Shown: positions 7,012 through 50,830 of the stretch, piece by piece | How the letters are laid out: each line of letters starts with the position of its first letter | How positions within the stretch are numbered: position 1 is the first letter of the stretch | NCBI GenBank assembly: GCA_028864975.1 | Contig: JAGWLG010000005.1 | Span: forward strand, 1 to 64,000 | Direction of reading: 5' to 3' | DNA length: 64,000 nucleotides | Source of the DNA: Thermoplasmata archaeon | GTDB taxonomy: Archaea; Thermoplasmatota; Thermoplasmata; Lutacidiplasmatales; UBA184 | Notes under the pieces: generated by a model | What the model saw: the letters and a program-made list of their open reading frames with translations, nothing else | Databases searched by the model: none | What the model was told of the DNA's origin: nothing | Position numbers and translations under genes: made by a program

Positions 7012-7140
7012 GCCGTTCTCCGTCCCAGCCGCCCCGCCGTTCGGCCCGACGGTGCCCGAGGGTATTAGAAAGTCCTCCGAAGAAGGCCCGCCTCAGTGGC
7101 CGGTTCCTTTATGTATAGGTGCGCCCCATCGACTCCTACT

Positions 7141-41800: not shown

Positions 41801-41835
41801 CAAAAAGGCCTCTCGGAGATACGCCCGAGATACGC
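41801..41835 (-). promoter_or_regulatory. Promoter: GCGTATC-N4-GCGTATC-N11-TTTTTG (tandem direct repeat + TATA-like box)
   Basis: Plus strand caaaaaggcctctcggaGATACGCccgaGATACGC; same spacing as 47130-47164. Confidence 0.7.
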
Positions 41836-41908: not shown

Positions 41909-43327
41909 TCATTCCTGCGGGGCCGCCTCCTTGGCCGCTCCTCGACCAGGATCGAGGGTCGCACCCTTCCGTCGAAGCTCCTTGGCCAGGGCCTCTCCGC
42001 GGCCGGTCAATCGGTAGACCTTCATGCGACGTGGTCGGCCGCGCACGTGGCGAACGTCGACCAGAAGGATCCCTCCGGCCTCCAGACGTCGTAGGACATT
42101 GGTCAGCGCGTTCTGACGGACCCCGAGGGTCTCGGCCATGCCCTGCTGGGTGAACGCAACCGGTGCGACATCGTCCGCGTGAAGCGCCCCTTGCAAGGCC
42201 AGGTGGACGACGACCCTCTCGGAGACGCGAAGGGCGTCCCGGGACGGAGGTGTCGCCTTCGGACGCGAAGGCCGGGCCGGCCTCGCGGTCACGCCCTGGG
42301 TCGCTCCGGAAACCTCTGGGGGCTTCGGAGGGGATATCGGAACCGTTCCAGGGACGGCCACGGCAACCACGGCCTCGACCGAAGAGCTCGCAGTGGGGGG
42401 GCTCGTGATGGCCGTGGGGGTCGTGGCCACGCTTCCGTCAGTCGTGGCCTGGGTATCAGCGACCTCTCTGCGAGCCTTCGTTTCCCGGCTCTCCTGACCC
42501 GTTCGTATCCCCCCAAGTCGCAGCAGGGCGTAGAGCGCGAGCCCTCCCGAGGCCGCTCCCAGGCCTAGCGCCCAGAACAGAGGCGTGATCTCCAGCGAAG
42601 AGGGAGAAGCCGCCGCGGCGGTGACGTTGACCCACGTCGTGGCTGACGCCGGGGTGCCTTTGGAATCGGTGACCGTGAACGTGACCAGATACGTTCCCGC
42701 ATCTCGGTACGAATGATCGAGCGCGATCCCCGTTCCGCTCGATGCGTCCCCGAAGGTCCAGGAGTAGGAAGCGTACGTGCCGGTGCCTCCCGTCACGCGG
42801 CCCTCGAAGGAGACCGTCAGCGGCGCTTCCCCTCCCAGAGGCGAGGCCACGATCGAGACCTCTAACGCCGAAGGCACGACATGGATGGTGATGTTGGCGC
42901 TCGAGGTCCTGAGGCCCTCGTGCACCGTAACGGTCGTGTCGAAGTACCCCGCGTGGCCGTAGGTGTGGTATCTGGGGTCCCAGGGCGCATGGCTCGAGAC
43001 GTTGACATCGGGAGTTCCGTCGCCGAAGCTCCAGTTGTAGCTTGTCGGTACCCCCGAGATCGCGGTCGCGTTCAACAAGACGACCAGGGGAACCCCGCCG
43101 TAGCTAGGGGTCGCGGAAAGCGCGACGAGGAAGAGGGGCTCCGGGGAAGTCGAGGCCTCCTCCGGCGCCGTCCCCGCCCCAGGGGTCCCTGAGAAGAAGA
43201 GGAGGAGGACCCCGAGGAGCAGGGTGATGACCAGGCGCCGAACGTGGCGTACGTAGCACCTCAAGGCGAATGTCGGCACCCTGTAGGAGCGATATGGGCA
43301 TTTGCTCCCGGGGCCGGTACCCCACAC
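41909..43327 (-). CDS. Membrane-tethered transcription factor: signal/TM + 2 PKD + TM + C-terminal winged HTH
   Basis: RRLVITLLLGVLLLFF; two PKD units; TM PLFWALGLGAASGGLALYALL; FTQQGMAETLGVRQNALTNVLRRLEAGG...RMKVYRLTGRG. The start may be GTG 43279. Confidence 0.85.
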   Translation of the reverse strand: MWGTGPGSKCPYRSYRVPTFALRCYVRHVRRLVITLLLGVLLLFFSGTPGAGTAPEEASTSPEPLFLVALSATPSYGGVPLVVLLNATAISGVPTSYNWSFGDGTPDVNVSSHAPWDPRYHTYGHAGYFDTTVTVHEGLRTSSANITIHVVPSALEVSIVASPLGGEAPLTVSFEGRVTGGTGTYASYSWTFGDASSGTGIALDHSYRDAGTYLVTFTVTDSKGTPASATTWVNVTAAAASPSSLEITPLFWALGLGAASGGLALYALLRLGGIRTGQESRETKARREVADTQATTDGSVATTPTAITSPPTASSSVEAVVAVAVPGTVPISPPKPPEVSGATQGVTARPARPSRPKATPPSRDALRVSERVVVHLALQGALHADDVAPVAFTQQGMAETLGVRQNALTNVLRRLEAGGILLVDVRHVRGRPRRMKVYRLTGRGEALAKELRRKGATLDPGRGAAKEAAPQE

Positions 43328-43828: not shown

Positions 43829-46800
43829 TCACCGCGCGCCAAACGGAGGCATCTCGAGACTCCTCTGACGGAGGGCGATCGCCCCGCTCTGAGGGTCGAA
43901 CTCGATCCTCTCGGAAAGGATCGTGGGGGGGTGTCGGACCTGTGTCGCCCCCCCTGCTGGGGTCGATGGCGACGGTTTCGAAGTGTCGCCCGGAGCCGGA
44001 GACGCGCCGGACGCAACAAGGCCCCCGGACGCTCTCCTTCGAGGGGGGCGAAGGAGGAGGAAACCCGCCAGAGCCGTGATCCCCACCGTACCAAGGACCA
44101 GTCCCGCCACGATGGCCGGGTCCCCAAGGGCCGAGCCCGACCTGGCCCCACCTGGCGCACTGACCTGGACGTACAGCACGCTGCTGATACCCCGTCGCCC
44201 CGATGCATCGGTCACCAGGACGAAGACCGCATACTCGCCCGTCATCGCGAACGTGTGCGTGGTGGAGAGCGAGGTCGAGCTGAACGTGGTCCCATCTCCG
44301 AAGTTCCAGAGAACCTGATACGGCACAGCTCCGCCCTGTACGACCGCCGTGAACTGCGTCGGACTGCCCTCTCGCGGGAAGGACGAGCTCCAGAAGCTGA
44401 CGTTCAGAGGAAGGTCCCCTCCCCCGCAGGATGTCGCGTTGACGATGGCGATCGCGGGAAGGGTCGCCGAGTCCCCCACTTGGTCCTCCACGGTGAGACG
44501 GGGATGATAGGTTCCCGGGACCGAGTAGTTGTACGAGATGGTCGCGGGGCCCTGGACCGTGCCCGCTCCGGTGAAGTTCCAGAGGAAGGTGTACGGGGGG
44601 ACTCCCCCCGTCGCGGAAGCCTGAAAGACGACGTTGACCGGCGCGCAGGCGCTGACGCTGGTCGCCGTGGCCGATCCCACGAGGACGGTGCCGTTCCCTC
44701 CCCCGCCGCTCTCGTTGACCTGGATGCGCAGCGACGCGATGGCGCTGTTCCCCCCGCTGTCGTTGACGAGAACGGTGGCCTCGTAGGTACCGGGGGTCGG
44801 GTAGGTATAGGCCGGGCAGGCCTCGGAAGACGCTCCCCCGTTCCCGAAGGTCCACGCATAGGTGTAGGGCGCGAGCCCTCCCGCGACCTGGGCACAGAAC
44901 TGGACCGCGAGCGGCGCCGTACCGCTCGTAGGCTCGCCCGAGACCTGGATCAGGACCGACGAGGAGCCGTTAGGGTCGACCGTGACCATCAACGCGGCGC
45001 TTGTCGCAGAGTTCCCGCGGGCATCCGTGACGAGAAGCTGGACAGTGAAAGTTCCGGTCGCGTAGATGGTGCAACTGAAGCTCGCGTTCCTGGGAGCGGT
45101 GCAGGGGACCCCCGTCCAAGCGAAGGCATAGGGGGGAGCGCCGCCGGAGGCCGCTCCGGTGAACTGGACGAGCAAAGGCGCGACCCCGGTCGTCGGATCC
45201 GCGGAAGCCGTGGCCGAGAGCGCTGGGGGTGAGGTGACGACGACGGTCACGCTGGTCGATGCGGAAGCGCCCGTCGAGTCGGTGGCCACGACGGTGGCGG
45301 TGAAGGTTCCTGGCGTCGAATAGATGTGACTCACCGTGGCCCCCGTGGCCGTCGAACCGTCGCCGAGGTCCCAGCTCCAAGAGTAGGGGGGCGATCCCCC
45401 CGCCGTGGCGGCGTCCAGGGTGCAGGGAGTTCCAAAGCCGACGGGGTCCGGCGTGGCGCTCGCCGCTACATGGAGCGTGGTCGAACTGGTCACGTTCAGC
45501 GTCCAGGTGTCACCAAAGAGGGTGGTCGACGTGCCGCCCCCGAAGTAGAGGACGTACCCCTCGGCGGGGTCGTAGGCCATGGCGGCGCCGGCACGGCCGT
45601 CGGGCATCGCCGTGAGCAGACTCGTCAAGTTCGTCCAGTTCGCTCCCGACAGGCTCCACAGCTCTACACAGCTGGTCGGGCCGCTGCAGGAATGCCGCGG
45701 CCACGTGTCCGTGAAAGGGAGGAGGACCCCTTGAGCGGCCGGATCGTCGACCATCTGCTCCCACCCCCCGAAGGGCGGCTCTGGGCTCCACGTATCGACC
45801 TTCCATGCCCCGTTCTGGTACAGACAGGTCCCGTAGGTGTCGTTCCCCCCTACGGAGACCAAGTAGGCGTCGGTCGAGTCGAAGGTGAGAGGGTCAAGGA
45901 GGGTGCAAGAGTCGACCGCAGCATCCTGCCACCAGGTCCCCGCGTGGTAGAAATCGAGCGGGCTCGCTGACGGGGTAGGGTTCGGGTAGCGCCCGATCAA
46001 GGCTACCGCAGCCGCGACCGGGTCGTAGGTAAGGTCCGGGGCGTACGACCATGACCCGAGGGACGAGGGAAGGGTCCCTTCCAGCTGCCACTGGTCATTG
46101 GAGAAGACCCAGACATCGTTCAGACCACGGACCGAGCTGTTGGACCCGCCCACGAGGAGGAGGTACCCGTCCGCAGCGTCGTACGTCATCATCGCGCCGT
46201 AGCGCGGTGAGGGGGCGGTCGAGAGTCCCGCCGAGAGGTTGGTCCAGACCCCGTGCTCGAAGGCCCACGTGTCGCCGAGGGGGGCGCTCCTCGCGCCCGC
46301 TCCCCCGAAGAGGAGCACGGCCTGCATGGCCGGGTCGTAGGCGGCCGCCGCCCCCGTCCGAGCCGAAGGGGAGGCAGGGGTGGTGAGGAGGGTCCAGGCA
46401 GCGGATACCGTCGGAGGCGTCACCGTGATGGTGAGATTGACGAACGCATGCCAAGGCTGGGCCTGGGTATCGATCGCCTCGAAGGTCACGAGATAGGTCC
46501 CTGGGGCTGTGAACGTGTGGGCACCGAAGGTCCAGGTGCCGGTCCGGGCGTAGCAGTAACTGTTGCTCGGCCCCGCCCTCGCCCCATCGCCGTAGTCGAA
46601 GCTGCAGTCATAGTAGTAGTAACCGGCGGGGTCCCCCCTCACGGAGGTCTCAAACCCGACGGTGAGCGGCGCGGGACCCGCCGTCCTCGAGGCGTTCGCC
46701 CAGGCTTGCAGAACGAAGGAGGGCGACACTCCCGCCGGAGCGCCGTCGGTTTGAGGACCCGATGGGCCCTCTACCACGCTGCCGCGCGCGAGCGTTTCTG

Positions 46801-47095
46801 CCCAAGGGGGTGCGAGCTGCGGTCCGAGCCGTTGACCCGGGAGCTGCCAGTGGTCGACCGGCTCCCACAGGTGGGCCATGGCGTCCGATCGGACCTCCGT
46901 GGGGGTCGGCGAGTGGGCAGCCAACGACAGCGCCCCCGACACCGGGTCCGATAGCGGGCGTCCTGCATGGACAGCAAGCCCCGCTGGGAGGATGCTCAGA
47001 AGGAGCATCATGACCAAGAGGAGCACCATCGCCGTATCGGTCGAGCTCCTGGAGGGTCTGGGGCAGCAGCCCATTGACGGGCGCGATGCATTCAT
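43829..47095 (-). CDS. PKD + Kelch beta-propeller + 5 PKD + C-terminal TM surface protein
   Basis: Signal MVLLLVMMLLLSIL; AAYDPA..AVLLFGG repeats; GG..PY.W..GDG units; TM IVAGLVLGTVGITALAGFLLL. Confidence 0.9.
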   Translation of the reverse strand: MNASRPSMGCCPRPSRSSTDTAMVLLLVMMLLLSILPAGLAVHAGRPLSDPVSGALSLAAHSPTPTEVRSDAMAHLWEPVDHWQLPGQRLGPQLAPPWAETLARGSVVEGPSGPQTDGAPAGVSPSFVLQAWANASRTAGPAPLTVGFETSVRGDPAGYYYYDCSFDYGDGARAGPSNSYCYARTGTWTFGAHTFTAPGTYLVTFEAIDTQAQPWHAFVNLTITVTPPTVSAAWTLLTTPASPSARTGAAAAYDPAMQAVLLFGGAGARSAPLGDTWAFEHGVWTNLSAGLSTAPSPRYGAMMTYDAADGYLLLVGGSNSSVRGLNDVWVFSNDQWQLEGTLPSSLGSWSYAPDLTYDPVAAAVALIGRYPNPTPSASPLDFYHAGTWWQDAAVDSCTLLDPLTFDSTDAYLVSVGGNDTYGTCLYQNGAWKVDTWSPEPPFGGWEQMVDDPAAQGVLLPFTDTWPRHSCSGPTSCVELWSLSGANWTNLTSLLTAMPDGRAGAAMAYDPAEGYVLYFGGGTSTTLFGDTWTLNVTSSTTLHVAASATPDPVGFGTPCTLDAATAGGSPPYSWSWDLGDGSTATGATVSHIYSTPGTFTATVVATDSTGASASTSVTVVVTSPPALSATASADPTTGVAPLLVQFTGAASGGAPPYAFAWTGVPCTAPRNASFSCTIYATGTFTVQLLVTDARGNSATSAALMVTVDPNGSSSVLIQVSGEPTSGTAPLAVQFCAQVAGGLAPYTYAWTFGNGGASSEACPAYTYPTPGTYEATVLVNDSGGNSAIASLRIQVNESGGGGNGTVLVGSATATSVSACAPVNVVFQASATGGVPPYTFLWNFTGAGTVQGPATISYNYSVPGTYHPRLTVEDQVGDSATLPAIAIVNATSCGGGDLPLNVSFWSSSFPREGSPTQFTAVVQGGAVPYQVLWNFGDGTTFSSTSLSTTHTFAMTGEYAVFVLVTDASGRRGISSVLYVQVSAPGGARSGSALGDPAIVAGLVLGTVGITALAGFLLLRPPRRRASGGLVASGASPAPGDTSKPSPSTPAGGATQVRHPPTILSERIEFDPQSGAIALRQRSLEMPPFGAR

Positions 47096-47129: not shown

Positions 47130-47164
47130 CAAATATCGAACTCAAAGATACGCTGAGGATACGC
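47130..47164 (-). promoter_or_regulatory. Promoter: GCGTATC-N4-GCGTATC-N11-TATTTG
   Basis: Plus strand caaatatcgaactcaaaGATACGCtgagGATACGC; a third, inverted copy GCGTATC at 47184-47190. Confidence 0.7.
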
Positions 47165-47282
47165 CACGAACAGGACGCCCGTAGCGTATCCGGGTCGTAG
47201 CTCGCTACGGATCCTTGGCGACCTCCCCACTCATCATCGGCGCGGGAGGAGATGTTTTAGGCGCCACCTATTCGCGCCCCCC

Positions 47283-47522
47283 ATGACCCTCACTCGGCGT
47301 TCGGCCATGGCTCCGAAAGGGGCCTACTGCTTCGGATGCAACCAGGCCATCGACGGCGGGGCACCTTCGGTCCGCTTCGAGAGCGACCTTGTCCCCGCCC
47401 CGGACCGCCCCGAGCTGGCAAACCTCTACTTCCACCCTGGCCATCTCCTTCGCTATGCTCGTCGCCGGAACTGGACCGAGCTTGCCTCTTTCCTTGAAGC
47501 TAATACTCCGTCGAGCTGGTGA
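47283..47522 (+). CDS. Small putative zinc-binding protein (CxxC...HxxH)
   Basis: YCFGCNQAI...LYFHPGHL; the start may be ATG 47307. Confidence 0.65.
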   Translation: MTLTRRSAMAPKGAYCFGCNQAIDGGAPSVRFESDLVPAPDRPELANLYFHPGHLLRYARRRNWTELASFLEANTPSSW

Positions 47523-47764
47523 TCCTGTTCCGGGCTCTCGGGCACCGAGGGTCCGTGGTCTGCGATGACGAGGAGGGCCCCGGGACCCTGAGTCGTTGTG
47601 TCGTCCTCCACGGGGACGGGAGAGGTGGAGCACCCGAACCCCACTCGAAGAGATGCTGCTCCTCGGTCGGGCCCTTCTTCGGGGAGCATCTCCTCCCGTG
47701 AACACCTAATGCCCCTCAAGATTCTCCTACGAACGTGGGGCATTCCCCGTCAAGTTCCCGAGCG

Positions 47765-50700
47765 ATGAAGACCGGGACCCCGAGCTCGGACATCCCAGGA
47801 CTCTCGAGGTCTGCCCAGCTCGTGGGCCGGCGAGAGGTCATGGCCGAGCTCCGACGGATCCTTCTGGCCGCGAAGGAGGGGACCGGCTCCACGGTCGCGC
47901 TCACAGGCCCCGGTGGGATCGGGAAGACGAGCCTCCTCCGGTGGCTGGACGAGGAAGCGCGGGGCGAGGGCTTTGCAGTGCGGATGGGTTTCTGCTTGCA
48001 GGGGATCGACGCGCCTTTCTTTGCCTTCGAGCAGGTCTGGGGAGCATCGTCAGCCATACGTGACCCACCGGAGAGCCCGGCCGGGTCTAGTGCCGCGGCC
48101 GCGGCGGACGACGACGGGGCCCGGCTCGCGGCCGGGCCTGCGCAGCACGCCTCCATGGAACTCCGGCCGCAAGAGACGGGAGCCCTCCCGGGACGTCCTC
48201 TCCCTTTCCTCGGGCAGGCCGATGACGAGATCCCCCCGTCGGTCACGCTCCTACGATACCGGGAAGAGCTCGCGCAGGCCTCGAGCCAACGCCCGTTCCT
48301 CCTCCTGCTTGACGACCTGCAGTGGGCGGATCCCCAGTCCCTTCAGGCGCTGCAGTTCCTCGCTCGAAACCTGAGCGAGCTCCGCGCGTTCGTGGTCGTC
48401 GCCTTACGCGACGACCCGCACTCCCTCCAGGGGACCGACCCGGCCGAGGGACCGACGGTCGGGGAGACCATCGACCAACTGGTACGGGAGCGGACCCTTC
48501 GCCGCTTCTCCCTCTCCCCCTTCACTCGCGGAGAGGTCCGCCGTCTGGTCGCCAACGCGCTCGGGGGGGGCGTAGTCTCCGGAGAAAGCGAAGCGATGCT
48601 CCAGATCCTGACCGAACGAAGCGGAGGGATCCCCTACTACGTCGAGGAGCTCCTCCAGCAGCTGCGTTCGGAGGGCTACGTCGAGCGCGTCCGTGGAGGT
48701 TGGAAGCTCCGGCCCCCGGAGTCCTGGAAGGGTGCGCGTCGCTCGGGGGAAGGGCCCCGAGCGCCCATCCCCCTCTCGCTCCAGCGCCTGCTCAGGGCCA
48801 AGGTCTCGCCGCTCTCCCCGTCGGAGCGACGCGTTCTCGAGGTCGGGGCGGTGGTGGGGCTCCGCTTCGACCTTGAAGCCGTTGCCGCCGTCACGGGGCT
48901 CGGGGGTGCCGAGACCGAGTCGGTCTCCCGAAAGCTCTCGGAGGGGAGCCCGCTCCTGGTCCCCCCGGGAGGGGGTGGGGCTTCCTGGTCGTTCGTCCAC
49001 CCTCTGCTGTGGGAATACCTCCTCCACGAGCTGGCCCCGGGGTCCTTGCGGCGCATCTCTCAGGACCTCGCGACGTGGTGGGAGGTCCATCGCCCTCAGG
49101 AGATCGGGCGGATCGCGGGGTTCTACCATGCCGCTGGCGATGCGCGACGGGGACCGCCATCGATCCGTCGGGCGCTCGAGCATGCCCGACGGTCCCTCGC
49201 CTTGGACCAGGTCGAGACCTACCTGGGGTGGCTGCGGGAGCTGCTCCTGGAGCAGGGAACTTCGACGGCCCTCGTCGTCGAGGAGCAGTTGTTCATCGTC
49301 GACGCCCTGCGCTCGCTGGGAGGCTTCGAACATGGTCGTCGGGTCCTCGAGGGCCTCACCGACCTTCCGATCCCTCCCCCCCTGCGAGGCGAGGTCCTGG
49401 TCCGTCTGGCGGATCTGGTCAAGAACTACGATCCAGAGCGGAGCCAGCGACTCCTGACCGACCTCGAGCAGGGGACTTCGGTCGCCGGGCTGGTGCCCTA
49501 CGGGACCCTGCTGGGACGGATCCGCGTCGCCCAGGCCTATCTCCGAAACGAACAGATGGACTACTCCAAGAGCCTGGAGCTCGGCAGCGAGGCGCTCTCC
49601 CTCCTCGGGCCGAAGGGCGACCCGTACGAACGATCTCGTGTGCTCTCGTACCGCGCGTCCGCCCTGGCCAATCTCGGCCGGTTCGAGGAGGCGGCCGCCG
49701 CCTCAGGGGGGGCCCAGGAGATCGCCGAGAACGCGGGGTTGATGGGGATCCTCGAGCAGGCCAAGGTGGGCGCCGCCTATGCTCAGCTCGCCCGGGGCCA
49801 CGTTCGAGAGGCCCACGAGGACTTCCTTGCCGCCACCTCGCTCGCCCGACGGTCCGGCCACATCCCCCTCGTAGTGCACGGGCTGCTCTGCGACTGTCTT
49901 TCCCTCCTCGAGTTGGGTCGGTCCGACGAAGCGCGAAGCTTCGCGGAAGAGGCGAAGCTCCTCGCACGGCAGTTCGGCATGCAACGGTACGTGGCCGAGG
50001 CGGAGGGCACTTTGGCCGCTATCGCCCTTCGTCGTGGTGACACCATCAACGCGGTCCGGCACGGGAAGATCGCGCTGGGCTTGTCCAGTGGCATGGGGGA
50101 GGGCCAGCGGGTCAGCTTCCGTCTGACCCTGATCCGCGCTTACGCCGCCAGGGGGGAGGGGGCGGCGGCGCTGCGGGAGCTCTCCGAGGTCCTTCCCCCC
50201 GGGACGGACCCGAAAAGCGCCAGCTATCCGGACATCGCGCTCACGGGCGCTGAGGCCCTTGAGGCCAACGGACGGTCGGAGGAGGCCCGGGCGTTCCTGG
50301 AGGCCTCCCTCTCAAGGTCGCGCGAGATGCGGCTGCCCCTCATCGAAGCGGACTCGCTCCTCGCGCTCGCGGTCTGGGAGGAGCGCCACGGGGGGGCGGC
50401 GGCCTCGAGTCGACGCCGAAAGGAGGCTGAAGCTATGCTGGCACCGCTCTCGCTCTCCCTCCATGGGCGCCCACCGCCCCTCCTCTCCACCCTGCATGCC
50501 TCCCGCCGCCCTCGCCCCTCCCGGAGCGAGCGAAGGACCCCCGGCCTCTCCACGGGAGACCTCGTCCTCCTGCATCTCCAGCGCAACCTCCGCCACAGCG
50601 CCCTCCTGAGCGACGGAGGGGCCGCACCGGTGGCCCTCACGCAGGAAGGGATCGGAGAGGAACTCGGGCTGTCTCAGGGACGTTTGGCCGCCCCGCTCCA

Positions 50701-50830
50701 ACGGCTCGTGCAACGAGGGCTCGTGAAGTGCGCGGTGTGCCACGTGCAAGGGTTCGAAAGGCGCCGAAAGGCCTACGCGCTCACTCGCAAAGGACTTCTT
50801 GTGGCGAAGGGGCTCCAACCCCGCCGTTGA
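47765..50830 (+). CDS. STAND-type NTPase (AAA_16-like) + TPR repeats + C-terminal winged HTH
   Basis: Walker A GPGGIGKT, Walker B LLLLDDLQWAD, SGGIPYYVEEL, helical repeats, LTQEGIGEELGLSQ...RRRKAYALTRKG. Confidence 0.9.
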   Translation: MKTGTPSSDIPGLSRSAQLVGRREVMAELRRILLAAKEGTGSTVALTGPGGIGKTSLLRWLDEEARGEGFAVRMGFCLQGIDAPFFAFEQVWGASSAIRDPPESPAGSSAAAAADDDGARLAAGPAQHASMELRPQETGALPGRPLPFLGQADDEIPPSVTLLRYREELAQASSQRPFLLLLDDLQWADPQSLQALQFLARNLSELRAFVVVALRDDPHSLQGTDPAEGPTVGETIDQLVRERTLRRFSLSPFTRGEVRRLVANALGGGVVSGESEAMLQILTERSGGIPYYVEELLQQLRSEGYVERVRGGWKLRPPESWKGARRSGEGPRAPIPLSLQRLLRAKVSPLSPSERRVLEVGAVVGLRFDLEAVAAVTGLGGAETESVSRKLSEGSPLLVPPGGGGASWSFVHPLLWEYLLHELAPGSLRRISQDLATWWEVHRPQEIGRIAGFYHAAGDARRGPPSIRRALEHARRSLALDQVETYLGWLRELLLEQGTSTALVVEEQLFIVDALRSLGGFEHGRRVLEGLTDLPIPPPLRGEVLVRLADLVKNYDPERSQRLLTDLEQGTSVAGLVPYGTLLGRIRVAQAYLRNEQMDYSKSLELGSEALSLLGPKGDPYERSRVLSYRASALANLGRFEEAAAASGGAQEIAENAGLMGILEQAKVGAAYAQLARGHVREAHEDFLAATSLARRSGHIPLVVHGLLCDCLSLLELGRSDEARSFAEEAKLLARQFGMQRYVAEAEGTLAAIALRRGDTINAVRHGKIALGLSSGMGEGQRVSFRLTLIRAYAARGEGAAALRELSEVLPPGTDPKSASYPDIALTGAEALEANGRSEEARAFLEASLSRSREMRLPLIEADSLLALAVWEERHGGAAASSRRRKEAEAMLAPLSLSLHGRPPPLLSTLHASRRPRPSRSERRTPGLSTGDLVLLHLQRNLRHSALLSDGGAAPVALTQEGIGEELGLSQGRLAAPLQRLVQRGLVKCAVCHVQGFERRRKAYALTRKGLLVAKGLQPRR

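Follow-up and report, generated by a model that had tools for sequence, protein, structure and literature searches.

The regulators that most resemble the protein described here belong to the class of signal transduction ATPases that have numerous domains (STAND). MalT from Escherichia coli, which is of the LAL type (large ATP-binding regulators of the LuxR family), consists of a nucleotide-binding oligomerization domain (NOD), an arm, a sensor of tetratricopeptide repeats (TPR) or superstructure-forming repeats (SUPR), a flexible linker and a C-terminal DNA-binding domain with the four-helix fold of LuxR/GerE. AfsR from Streptomyces (8k60), of the SARP-LAL type (SARP, Streptomyces antibiotic regulatory protein), carries an OmpR-type winged helix-turn-helix (wHTH) and a BTAD domain at its N-terminus, next to a STAND NOD and a TPR sensor; its binding sites are direct repeats immediately upstream of the core promoter. 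PH0952 from Pyrococcus horikoshii (6mfv), an archaeal STAND protein predicted to be a transcription factor, has an ArsR-like effector at its N-terminus and is doubly autoinhibited at rest (PMC6468293). Two further groups bear on the DNA-binding domain, namely Rv3488 (5zhc) and the MarR/SlyA proteins, which are small stand-alone dimers with dimerization helices, and the transmembrane (TM) regulators of the ToxR/CadC type, with a sensor outside and a DNA-binding domain inside the cell (PMC10269533). Here we describe a STAND protein encoded at positions 47765-50830 of a 64,000-nucleotide stretch from a Thermoplasmata archaeon (GenBank assembly GCA_028864975.1, contig JAGWLG010000005.1, positions 1 to 64,000), hereafter the window. 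It is a STAND transcription regulator with the domain order of MalT but with a winged helix from a phylum-specific family; the kind of regulator is known, and the combination is new.

From the comparative analyses below we conclude, with a probability of about 0.7, that the protein is a cytoplasmic regulator of the STAND class that works as a one-component transcription factor on an operator of its own and corresponds, in this archaeon, to MalT, AfsR and PH0952. The window has a G+C content of ~68% and belongs to a genome assembly of 3.6 Mb; the relatives used for comparison are metagenome-assembled genomes labelled Thermoplasmata archaeon.

Domain architecture of the STAND protein

The gene and the parts of its product are as follows (AF2, AlphaFold2; pLDDT, predicted local distance difference test score).

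47765..50830, + strand: STAND NTPase-TPR-wHTH gene; 1021 amino acids from the ATG start, 1031 amino acids from a GTG start at 47735.
47816..48394, + strand: nucleotide-binding domain AAA_16, residues 28-220 (Pfam E 1.2e-21, 78.3 bits against a cut-off of 32.6).
47906-47929, + strand: Walker A motif GPGGIGKT, read in the translation.
48299-48331, + strand: Walker B motif LLLLDDLQWAD, read in the translation.
49514..50404, + strand: TPR sensor of the MalT/AfsR/PH0952 type, residues 594-890 (Pfam TPR_MalT 40.9 bits, below the 45-bit cut-off).
50498..50542, + strand: Arg/Pro/Ser-rich disordered linker between sensor and winged helix (AF2 pLDDT <50, model residues 912-926).
50552..50818, + strand: C-terminal winged helix (AF2 domain model, pLDDT 91.3).
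50675-50713, + strand: recognition helix of the winged helix, QGRLAAPLQRLVQ, followed by the beta-hairpin wing and one short final helix.

The recorded protein (P0017) begins at the ATG at 47765, and the alignment with its orthologue starts at residue 5 of the GTG form. It is built from a P-loop NOD with intact Walker A and Walker B motifs, an arm, a MalT-type TPR sensor, a flexible linker and a PadR/MarR-like wHTH at the C-terminus. The G, K and DD of the Walker motifs are nearly invariant among 14 homologues. A profile built from 14 sequences matched domain III of MalT (1hz4; E 4e-14), AfsR (E 1e-12) and PH0952 (E 5e-10), and the model of the STAND protein superimposed on 1hz4 with a Foldseek TM-score of 0.75. 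The full-length AF2 model (pLDDT 81, predicted template modelling score 0.70) has PH0952 as its top Foldseek match (E 1.8e-11, 758 columns), followed by Avs3, CED-4 and MalT, and shows the features that define the STAND fold, namely the core of nucleotide-binding, helical and winged-helix domains, the arm and the repeat sensor, as in the matched PH0952, CED-4 and Avs3. These relatives were seen only through profile and fold searches, as phmmer with the full protein found no match among the sequences of the PDB. No transmembrane segment was found in the protein.

The order of domains is thus that of MalT, although the C-terminus is a PadR/MarR-like winged helix instead of the LuxR/GerE four-helix domain, for which Pfam gave no match, and the NCBIfam MalT equivalog model scores 11.3 bits against a cut-off of 537. 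The host also differs, being an archaeon with TBP/TFB promoters, as does the long disordered insert of ~60 residues between Walker A and Walker B (AF2 pLDDT <50, residues 94-154 in ATG numbering). Such low-complexity inserts between the Walker motifs (47906-48331, + strand, in the window) occur in STAND paralogues as well, where they reach up to ~250 amino acids; such an insert is unusual among AAA_16 domains. PH0952, the best structural match, shares the archaeal origin, NOD, arm and TPR sensor, but its wHTH is ArsR-like and N-terminal, whereas the N-terminus of the protein described here passes straight into the nucleotide-binding domain without an ArsR-like wHTH, and the C-terminal wHTH stems from another family, one that membrane proteins carry as well. 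With AfsR the protein has in common the STAND NOD, the TPR sensor and a DNA-binding domain of the winged-helix type; the DNA-binding part of AfsR is, however, unrelated in sequence and lies at the other end.

The genome encodes about 20 AAA_16-TPR paralogues of ~1000 amino acids, most of which end in their TPRs without a DNA-binding domain. This abundance, together with Avs3 and CED-4 among the structural matches, could place the protein in a large family of immune or stress sensors without a transcriptional role, in which the wHTH would be an effector acting on foreign DNA or a protein-interaction or autoinhibitory module. That some STAND proteins are immune sensors had been raised in the initial annotation as an option for 47765-50830. 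The option gained no support: PADLOC yielded only weak P-loop matches (BrxD 21 bits, PifA 12.5 bits) and no match to a defence-system model, a Pfam scan of the STAND protein revealed no nuclease, protease or other death effector domain, the nearest structure is that of the predicted transcription factor PH0952, and the same wHTH family occurs on regulators with a conserved arrangement of operator and target. We therefore regard a defence function as highly improbable and dropped it.

A C-terminal wHTH occurs on two of the STAND paralogues, the protein studied here (contig C115) and one on contig C97, and an N-terminal wHTH on three. The latter have the order of PH0952, with wHTH, NTPase and TPRs (C13:36607-38910, - strand; C45:1-999, - strand; C29:86592-89678, - strand), and those on C13 and C45, both at the ends of contigs, are nearly identical to each other. 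Both placements of the wHTH on STAND proteins are thus used within a single genome. Three further STAND-TPR paralogues without a wHTH have a separate small MarR-like gene 0.4-1.6 kb away, where ~0.4 would be expected from 24 wHTH hits in 3.6 Mb; the small genes in question are C59:63144-63320 (+), C59:68422-68598 (+), C83:21745-21888 (-) and C28:29435-29605 (-). These adjacent pairs may be split versions of the fused STAND-wHTH.

A winged-helix family shared with membrane proteins

A second gene of the window encodes a protein with a related C-terminus.

41909-43327, - strand: PKD-PKD-TM-wHTH gene; signal/TM segment, two PKD domains, TM helix, low-complexity linker of ~100 amino acids, wHTH.
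41963..42226, - strand: winged helix of this protein, recognition helix QNALTNVLRRLEA.

The initial annotation had claimed that the C-terminus of the STAND protein matches that of 41909-43327 motif for motif, and both open reading frames (ORFs) do end in the motifs on which this claim was based. BLASTP aligned residues 914-1028 of the STAND protein with residues 336-452 of the PKD protein at 40% identity over 121 amino acids (55.8 bits, E 3e-12), and either wHTH, used as a query against the whole genome, retrieved the other (E 2e-11 and 1e-11). It had been considered beforehand that the likeness might equal that of random MarR-like winged helices. The genome contains 22 MarR_2 matches and two canonical PadR genes, and none of these reaches E < 0.01 against the STAND wHTH; because all lie at E ≥0.01, the likeness of the STAND and PKD domains is specific and far above that of arbitrary MarR-like pairs.

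The AF2 model of the STAND wHTH has the canonical topology of helix H2, recognition helix H3 and a beta-hairpin wing, followed by a short last helix, and contains no dimerization domain or element after the wing. Its profile matched the PadR-like Rv3488 first (E 7.5e-8) and then SlyA/MarR. Foldseek with the isolated domain retrieved generic MarR-family cores only, such as MepR (E ~1e-3, TM-score 0.55-0.63, wHTH core covered), and Pfam matches on residues 945-1020 (MarR_2, PadR and HTH_Crp_2) were all sub-threshold. Although fold and wing motif (G..RR..Y.LT..G) are common to Rv3488, the MarR/SlyA proteins and the domain described here, the latter is an appendage of large sensors and ends one short helix past the wing. 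We do not assign it to PadR (PF03551), given its sub-cut-off score and the single helix after the wing, or to MarR (PF12802/PF01047), where the MarR_2 score is likewise sub-cut-off and the Foldseek matches to MepR and similar proteins cover the wHTH core only.

Strong copies of the wHTH number exactly five in the genome, and otherwise only two distant N-terminal copies fall below E 1e-5. The five carriers are the STAND protein studied here (C115), its paralogue on C97, the PKD protein in the window, a PKD paralogue on C101 and a 1731-amino-acid beta-propeller/FN3-TM protein on C39. The proposal that one DNA-binding module has been fused to different inputs is thereby supported, with two STAND-TPR, two PKD-TM and one very large FN3/beta-propeller-TM carrier in a single genome. 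A profile of the five copies was then searched against 1.84 billion representatives, which returned 2487 clusters at a threshold of E 1e-3 and 1259 at one of E 1e-10, almost always with the domain at the C-terminus; of the 151 genomes sampled from the phylum, 82 contain the family at E 1e-15. Among the best 150 matches of the family profile, on which architectures were counted, ~66 have the order signal, two PKD domains, TM helix, linker and wHTH, ~35 are short proteins with an N-terminal TM helix, linker and wHTH, ~12 have large ectodomains (Kelch and PKD, or FN3), and one has a DUF835 after the wHTH. Only three are STAND proteins, two of them from this genome. The search for other fusions thus extended the set of inputs to the short N-terminal-TM forms and the Kelch and PKD ectodomains. 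The wHTH defines a family that is spread over the Thermoplasmatota, and most of its carriers are membrane-anchored. They resemble the ToxR/CadC-type regulators in that most members, including 41909-43327, are single-pass proteins with a sensor outside and the DNA-binding domain inside; the STAND protein differs in lacking a TM helix, with a cytoplasmic NTPase-TPR sensor in place of ectodomain and TM helix. The STAND wHTH shows the family signature, consisting of invariant G, R, Y, T and G, the wing HV.G..RR.K.Y.LT..G and a C-terminal position behind a low-complexity linker. Exceptions to the C-terminal position are P0099 (1496 amino acids), which runs past the wHTH into a DUF835, and P0019 and P0038, in which the wHTH lies mid-protein.

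Within the same family-level group, 10 other genomes encode STAND proteins with the C-terminal wHTH; they have 12 such genes between them, each confirmed with a hidden Markov model of the domain. A true orthologue (50% identity) was found in one genome of the same genus (G003), and a second orthologue (P0153) in a metagenome of the Joint Genome Institute. The whole genome G020 (genus g3) contains, at E 1e-8, three STAND-type copies of the wHTH and no membrane-tethered copy, which shows that the module's STAND lineage can be maintained where the membrane lineage is missing.

The tandem GCGTATC candidate operator

The initial annotation had further suggested that the two winged helices converge on the same promoters. 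The candidate DNA sites and their surroundings are listed here.

47147..47164, - strand: tandem GCGTATC-N4-GCGTATC, upstream of the Kelch-PKD gene 43829-47095, in the divergent region facing the small ORF and the STAND gene.
47184-47190: inverted heptamer accompanying the tandem at 47147..47164.
41818..41835, - strand: the other exact tandem GCGTATC-N4-GCGTATC, in the interval that separates the stop of the PKD-TM-wHTH gene from the Kelch-PKD gene (38355 to ~41780).
47283..47522, + strand: small ORF of 79 amino acids (CxxC...HPGH), on the strand of the STAND gene and immediately upstream of it, with the divergent operator region on its other side.

The exact tandem, which is the sole candidate operator of the locus, occurs twice in 3.6 Mb, where ~0.02 occurrences are expected, each time ~10 nt upstream of the TATA-like box of a Kelch-PKD gene. 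A search of 186 genomes from the order found it 18 times in 16 genomes, mostly in the same promoter geometry before homologous genes for Kelch-like surface proteins; the reversed control occurred 0 times. This count takes in one unpublished genome (G172), on which no conclusion rests. In G018 and in all five genomes of genus g4 that were examined, a PKD-TM-wHTH gene lies 2.6-3.7 kb downstream of the tandem on the same strand, and the helix RQN[AS]LTNVL[RT]RL is present in every operator-linked PKD-TM-wHTH regulator (7/7 genomes). The five g4 genomes with the operator contain no protein with this wHTH that is detectable through the STAND NTPase-TPR part. Conversely, STAND-wHTH genes are present in G001-G003, G015 and G019, which lack the tandem even when one mismatch is allowed, and G001-G003 have membrane wHTHs of the C101 type, whose helix is KQNTIATILKRL. 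The operator thus tracks the PKD-type helix and not the STAND protein.

In genera g6 (L055 (G018:C5) 7094-7111, - strand) and g4 (L168-L172), the tandem precedes an apparent unit of a Kelch-like surface protein followed by PKD-TM-wHTH, an arrangement that suggests autoregulation. The order in the window is rearranged to regulator gene, operator and Kelch-PKD gene. At many g4 sites, a third heptamer lies 8 nt upstream in inverted orientation.

A maximum-likelihood tree of 165 wHTH domains (113 columns), in which many deeper forks are unresolved, placed the STAND and PKD-TM domains in different subclades: 15 of the 16 STAND copies cluster with some of the large-ectodomain copies and are split from the PKD/short-TM cluster that holds the neighbour's domain, with a support of 94 in the Shimodaira-Hasegawa-like approximate likelihood ratio test. 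The remaining one, P0047, is nested inside a membrane clade (96*), a position in the tree that suggests a second, independent STAND-wHTH fusion. The recognition helices are SQGRLAAPLQRL in the STAND protein and RQNALTNVLRRL in the PKD protein of the window, and the former is kept in the orthologues from G003 and P0153. Five of the six helix positions presumed to face the bases, as inferred for the DNA-facing side, differ between the two proteins, and only a Gln is common.

A convergence in which the STAND-wHTH and PKD-TM-wHTH proteins both bind the tandem GCGTATC, so that the two Kelch-PKD promoters integrate signals from outside the cell with those from the cytoplasm, would agree with the single wHTH family and its invariant wing motif, with the distance of ~600 bp between the STAND gene and one of the genome's only two exact tandems, and with the inverted, degenerate copy in the divergent region towards the small ORF and the STAND gene. 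It is nonetheless decidedly unlikely. Against it stand the five changed base-facing positions, the separate tree clusters, the co-occurrence of operator and PKD-type helix (in 7/7 genomes, 5 of which lack a STAND-wHTH), the presence of STAND-wHTH genes without any tandem, as in G001-G003, and the surroundings of the G003 orthologue, where 19.9 kb of fetched sequence contain no GCGTATC heptamer at all. The milder helix variant KQNTIATILKRL of the C101-type PKD paralogue is, moreover, already found in genomes without the operator. Most likely, judging from helix sequences and phylogenetic distribution, the STAND wHTH reads an operator other than the tandem GCGTATC, and those sites belong to the PKD-TM-wHTH regulator.

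The position of the operator also allows for a cascade, in which the small ORF and the STAND gene would form one transcription unit controlled by the PKD-TM-wHTH protein via the divergent operator, with the STAND protein downstream of the membrane sensor. Between the Kelch-PKD gene and the small ORF, the tandem site forms part of an imperfect inverted repeat of 23 nt (47146-47168 and 47180-47202), and a TATA-like TTTTAGG precedes the ATG of the small ORF by 37 nt. In other genomes, however, the inverted upstream heptamer belongs to the operator of the Kelch gene itself and need not serve an opposite promoter, which makes the case for a cascade weak; there is a gap of 240 bp between the small ORF and the STAND gene, and STAND orthologues elsewhere are accompanied by neither the small ORF nor the operator. 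We consider the cascade unlikely. The small ORF itself had no Pfam match and a single homologue among 40 relatives (51% identical, G012).

Proposed mode of action and significance

For the preferred reading, that of a cytoplasmic regulator with its own operator, MalT provides the expected logic, in which inducer- and ATP-dependent multimerization would bring the DNA-binding domains together at repeated sites. If the protein works as MalT and PH0952 do, its resting form would be an ADP-bound monomer kept shut by its TPR sensor. Some cytoplasmic ligand or partner would open the protein, and ATP binding would then drive its multimerization. This would gather the otherwise monomeric winged helices on their flexible linkers and enable them to bind repeats at the promoters of target genes. 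In the membrane relatives, the ectodomain or the TM part would cluster this wHTH output; in the STAND lineage, the output module of the membrane family would have been joined to a cytoplasmic sensor instead.

Several points weigh against this reading. The Pfam scores of the winged helix are under the cut-offs for both MarR_2 (23.3 vs 27 bits) and PadR (16.5 vs 27 bits), and DNA binding, ATP dependence and multimerization of the STAND protein are inferred by analogy. The wing and much of the helix scaffold are common to the STAND and PKD-type domains, whose specificities could conceivably overlap, and the STAND gene, ~600 bp from one tandem, adjoins a divergent promoter bearing GCGTATC, which could mean a functional link. 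The analysis yielded neither an operator nor a target gene or ligand for the STAND protein. The genome G003 is the sole source of a close orthologue with retrievable context, and the locus is not syntenic: tblastn with seven neighbours from the window against the 19.9 kb found only the STAND gene and unrelated PKD repeats, the orthologue is flanked by genes for an AglB/STT3-like protein, a YdjM-like membrane protein and a HAD hydrolase, and this context gave no regulon. The k-mers shared by the upstream regions of the two orthologues were GC-rich noise without a convincing motif. A scan for repeats with a period of 10-12 bp upstream of 11 STAND-wHTH genes returned one weak pair in the window, CACCCGAA/CACTCGAA near 47631-47649, which we do not count as evidence.

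A broader reading, in which the Thermoplasmatota have in their C-terminal wHTH a generic output module that oligomerization switches on and the membrane sensor may additionally control the STAND gene in this locus, appears rather unlikely when all its parts are taken together. The wHTH alone would be monomeric and inactive, and clustering of its carrier, through ligand-induced clustering of membrane receptors or ATP-driven multimerization of STAND proteins, would enable it to bind tandem repeats spaced by one helical turn; the divergent operator would create an outside-to-inside cascade from the membrane sensor to the STAND gene. If this were true, the STAND-wHTH proteins would represent the first MalT-like activators of the 'enhanceosome' kind in archaea, acting on TBP/TFB promoters.

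To our knowledge, hardly any work has addressed how uncultured Thermoplasmatota regulate transcription, and few archaeal transcription factors are large multidomain proteins. The practical impact of the regulator described here will be modest until its target or ligand is known. Two regulons that a reading of the sequence alone had merged are now separated, with the GCGTATC operator going to the PKD-TM regulator and the STAND sites still to be found. The architecture represents an archaeal analogue of MalT with a winged helix in place of the LuxR domain. As one small DNA-binding module forms the output both of membrane receptors and of a cytoplasmic, ATP-driven switch, it provides a natural example of modular signal wiring in archaea.

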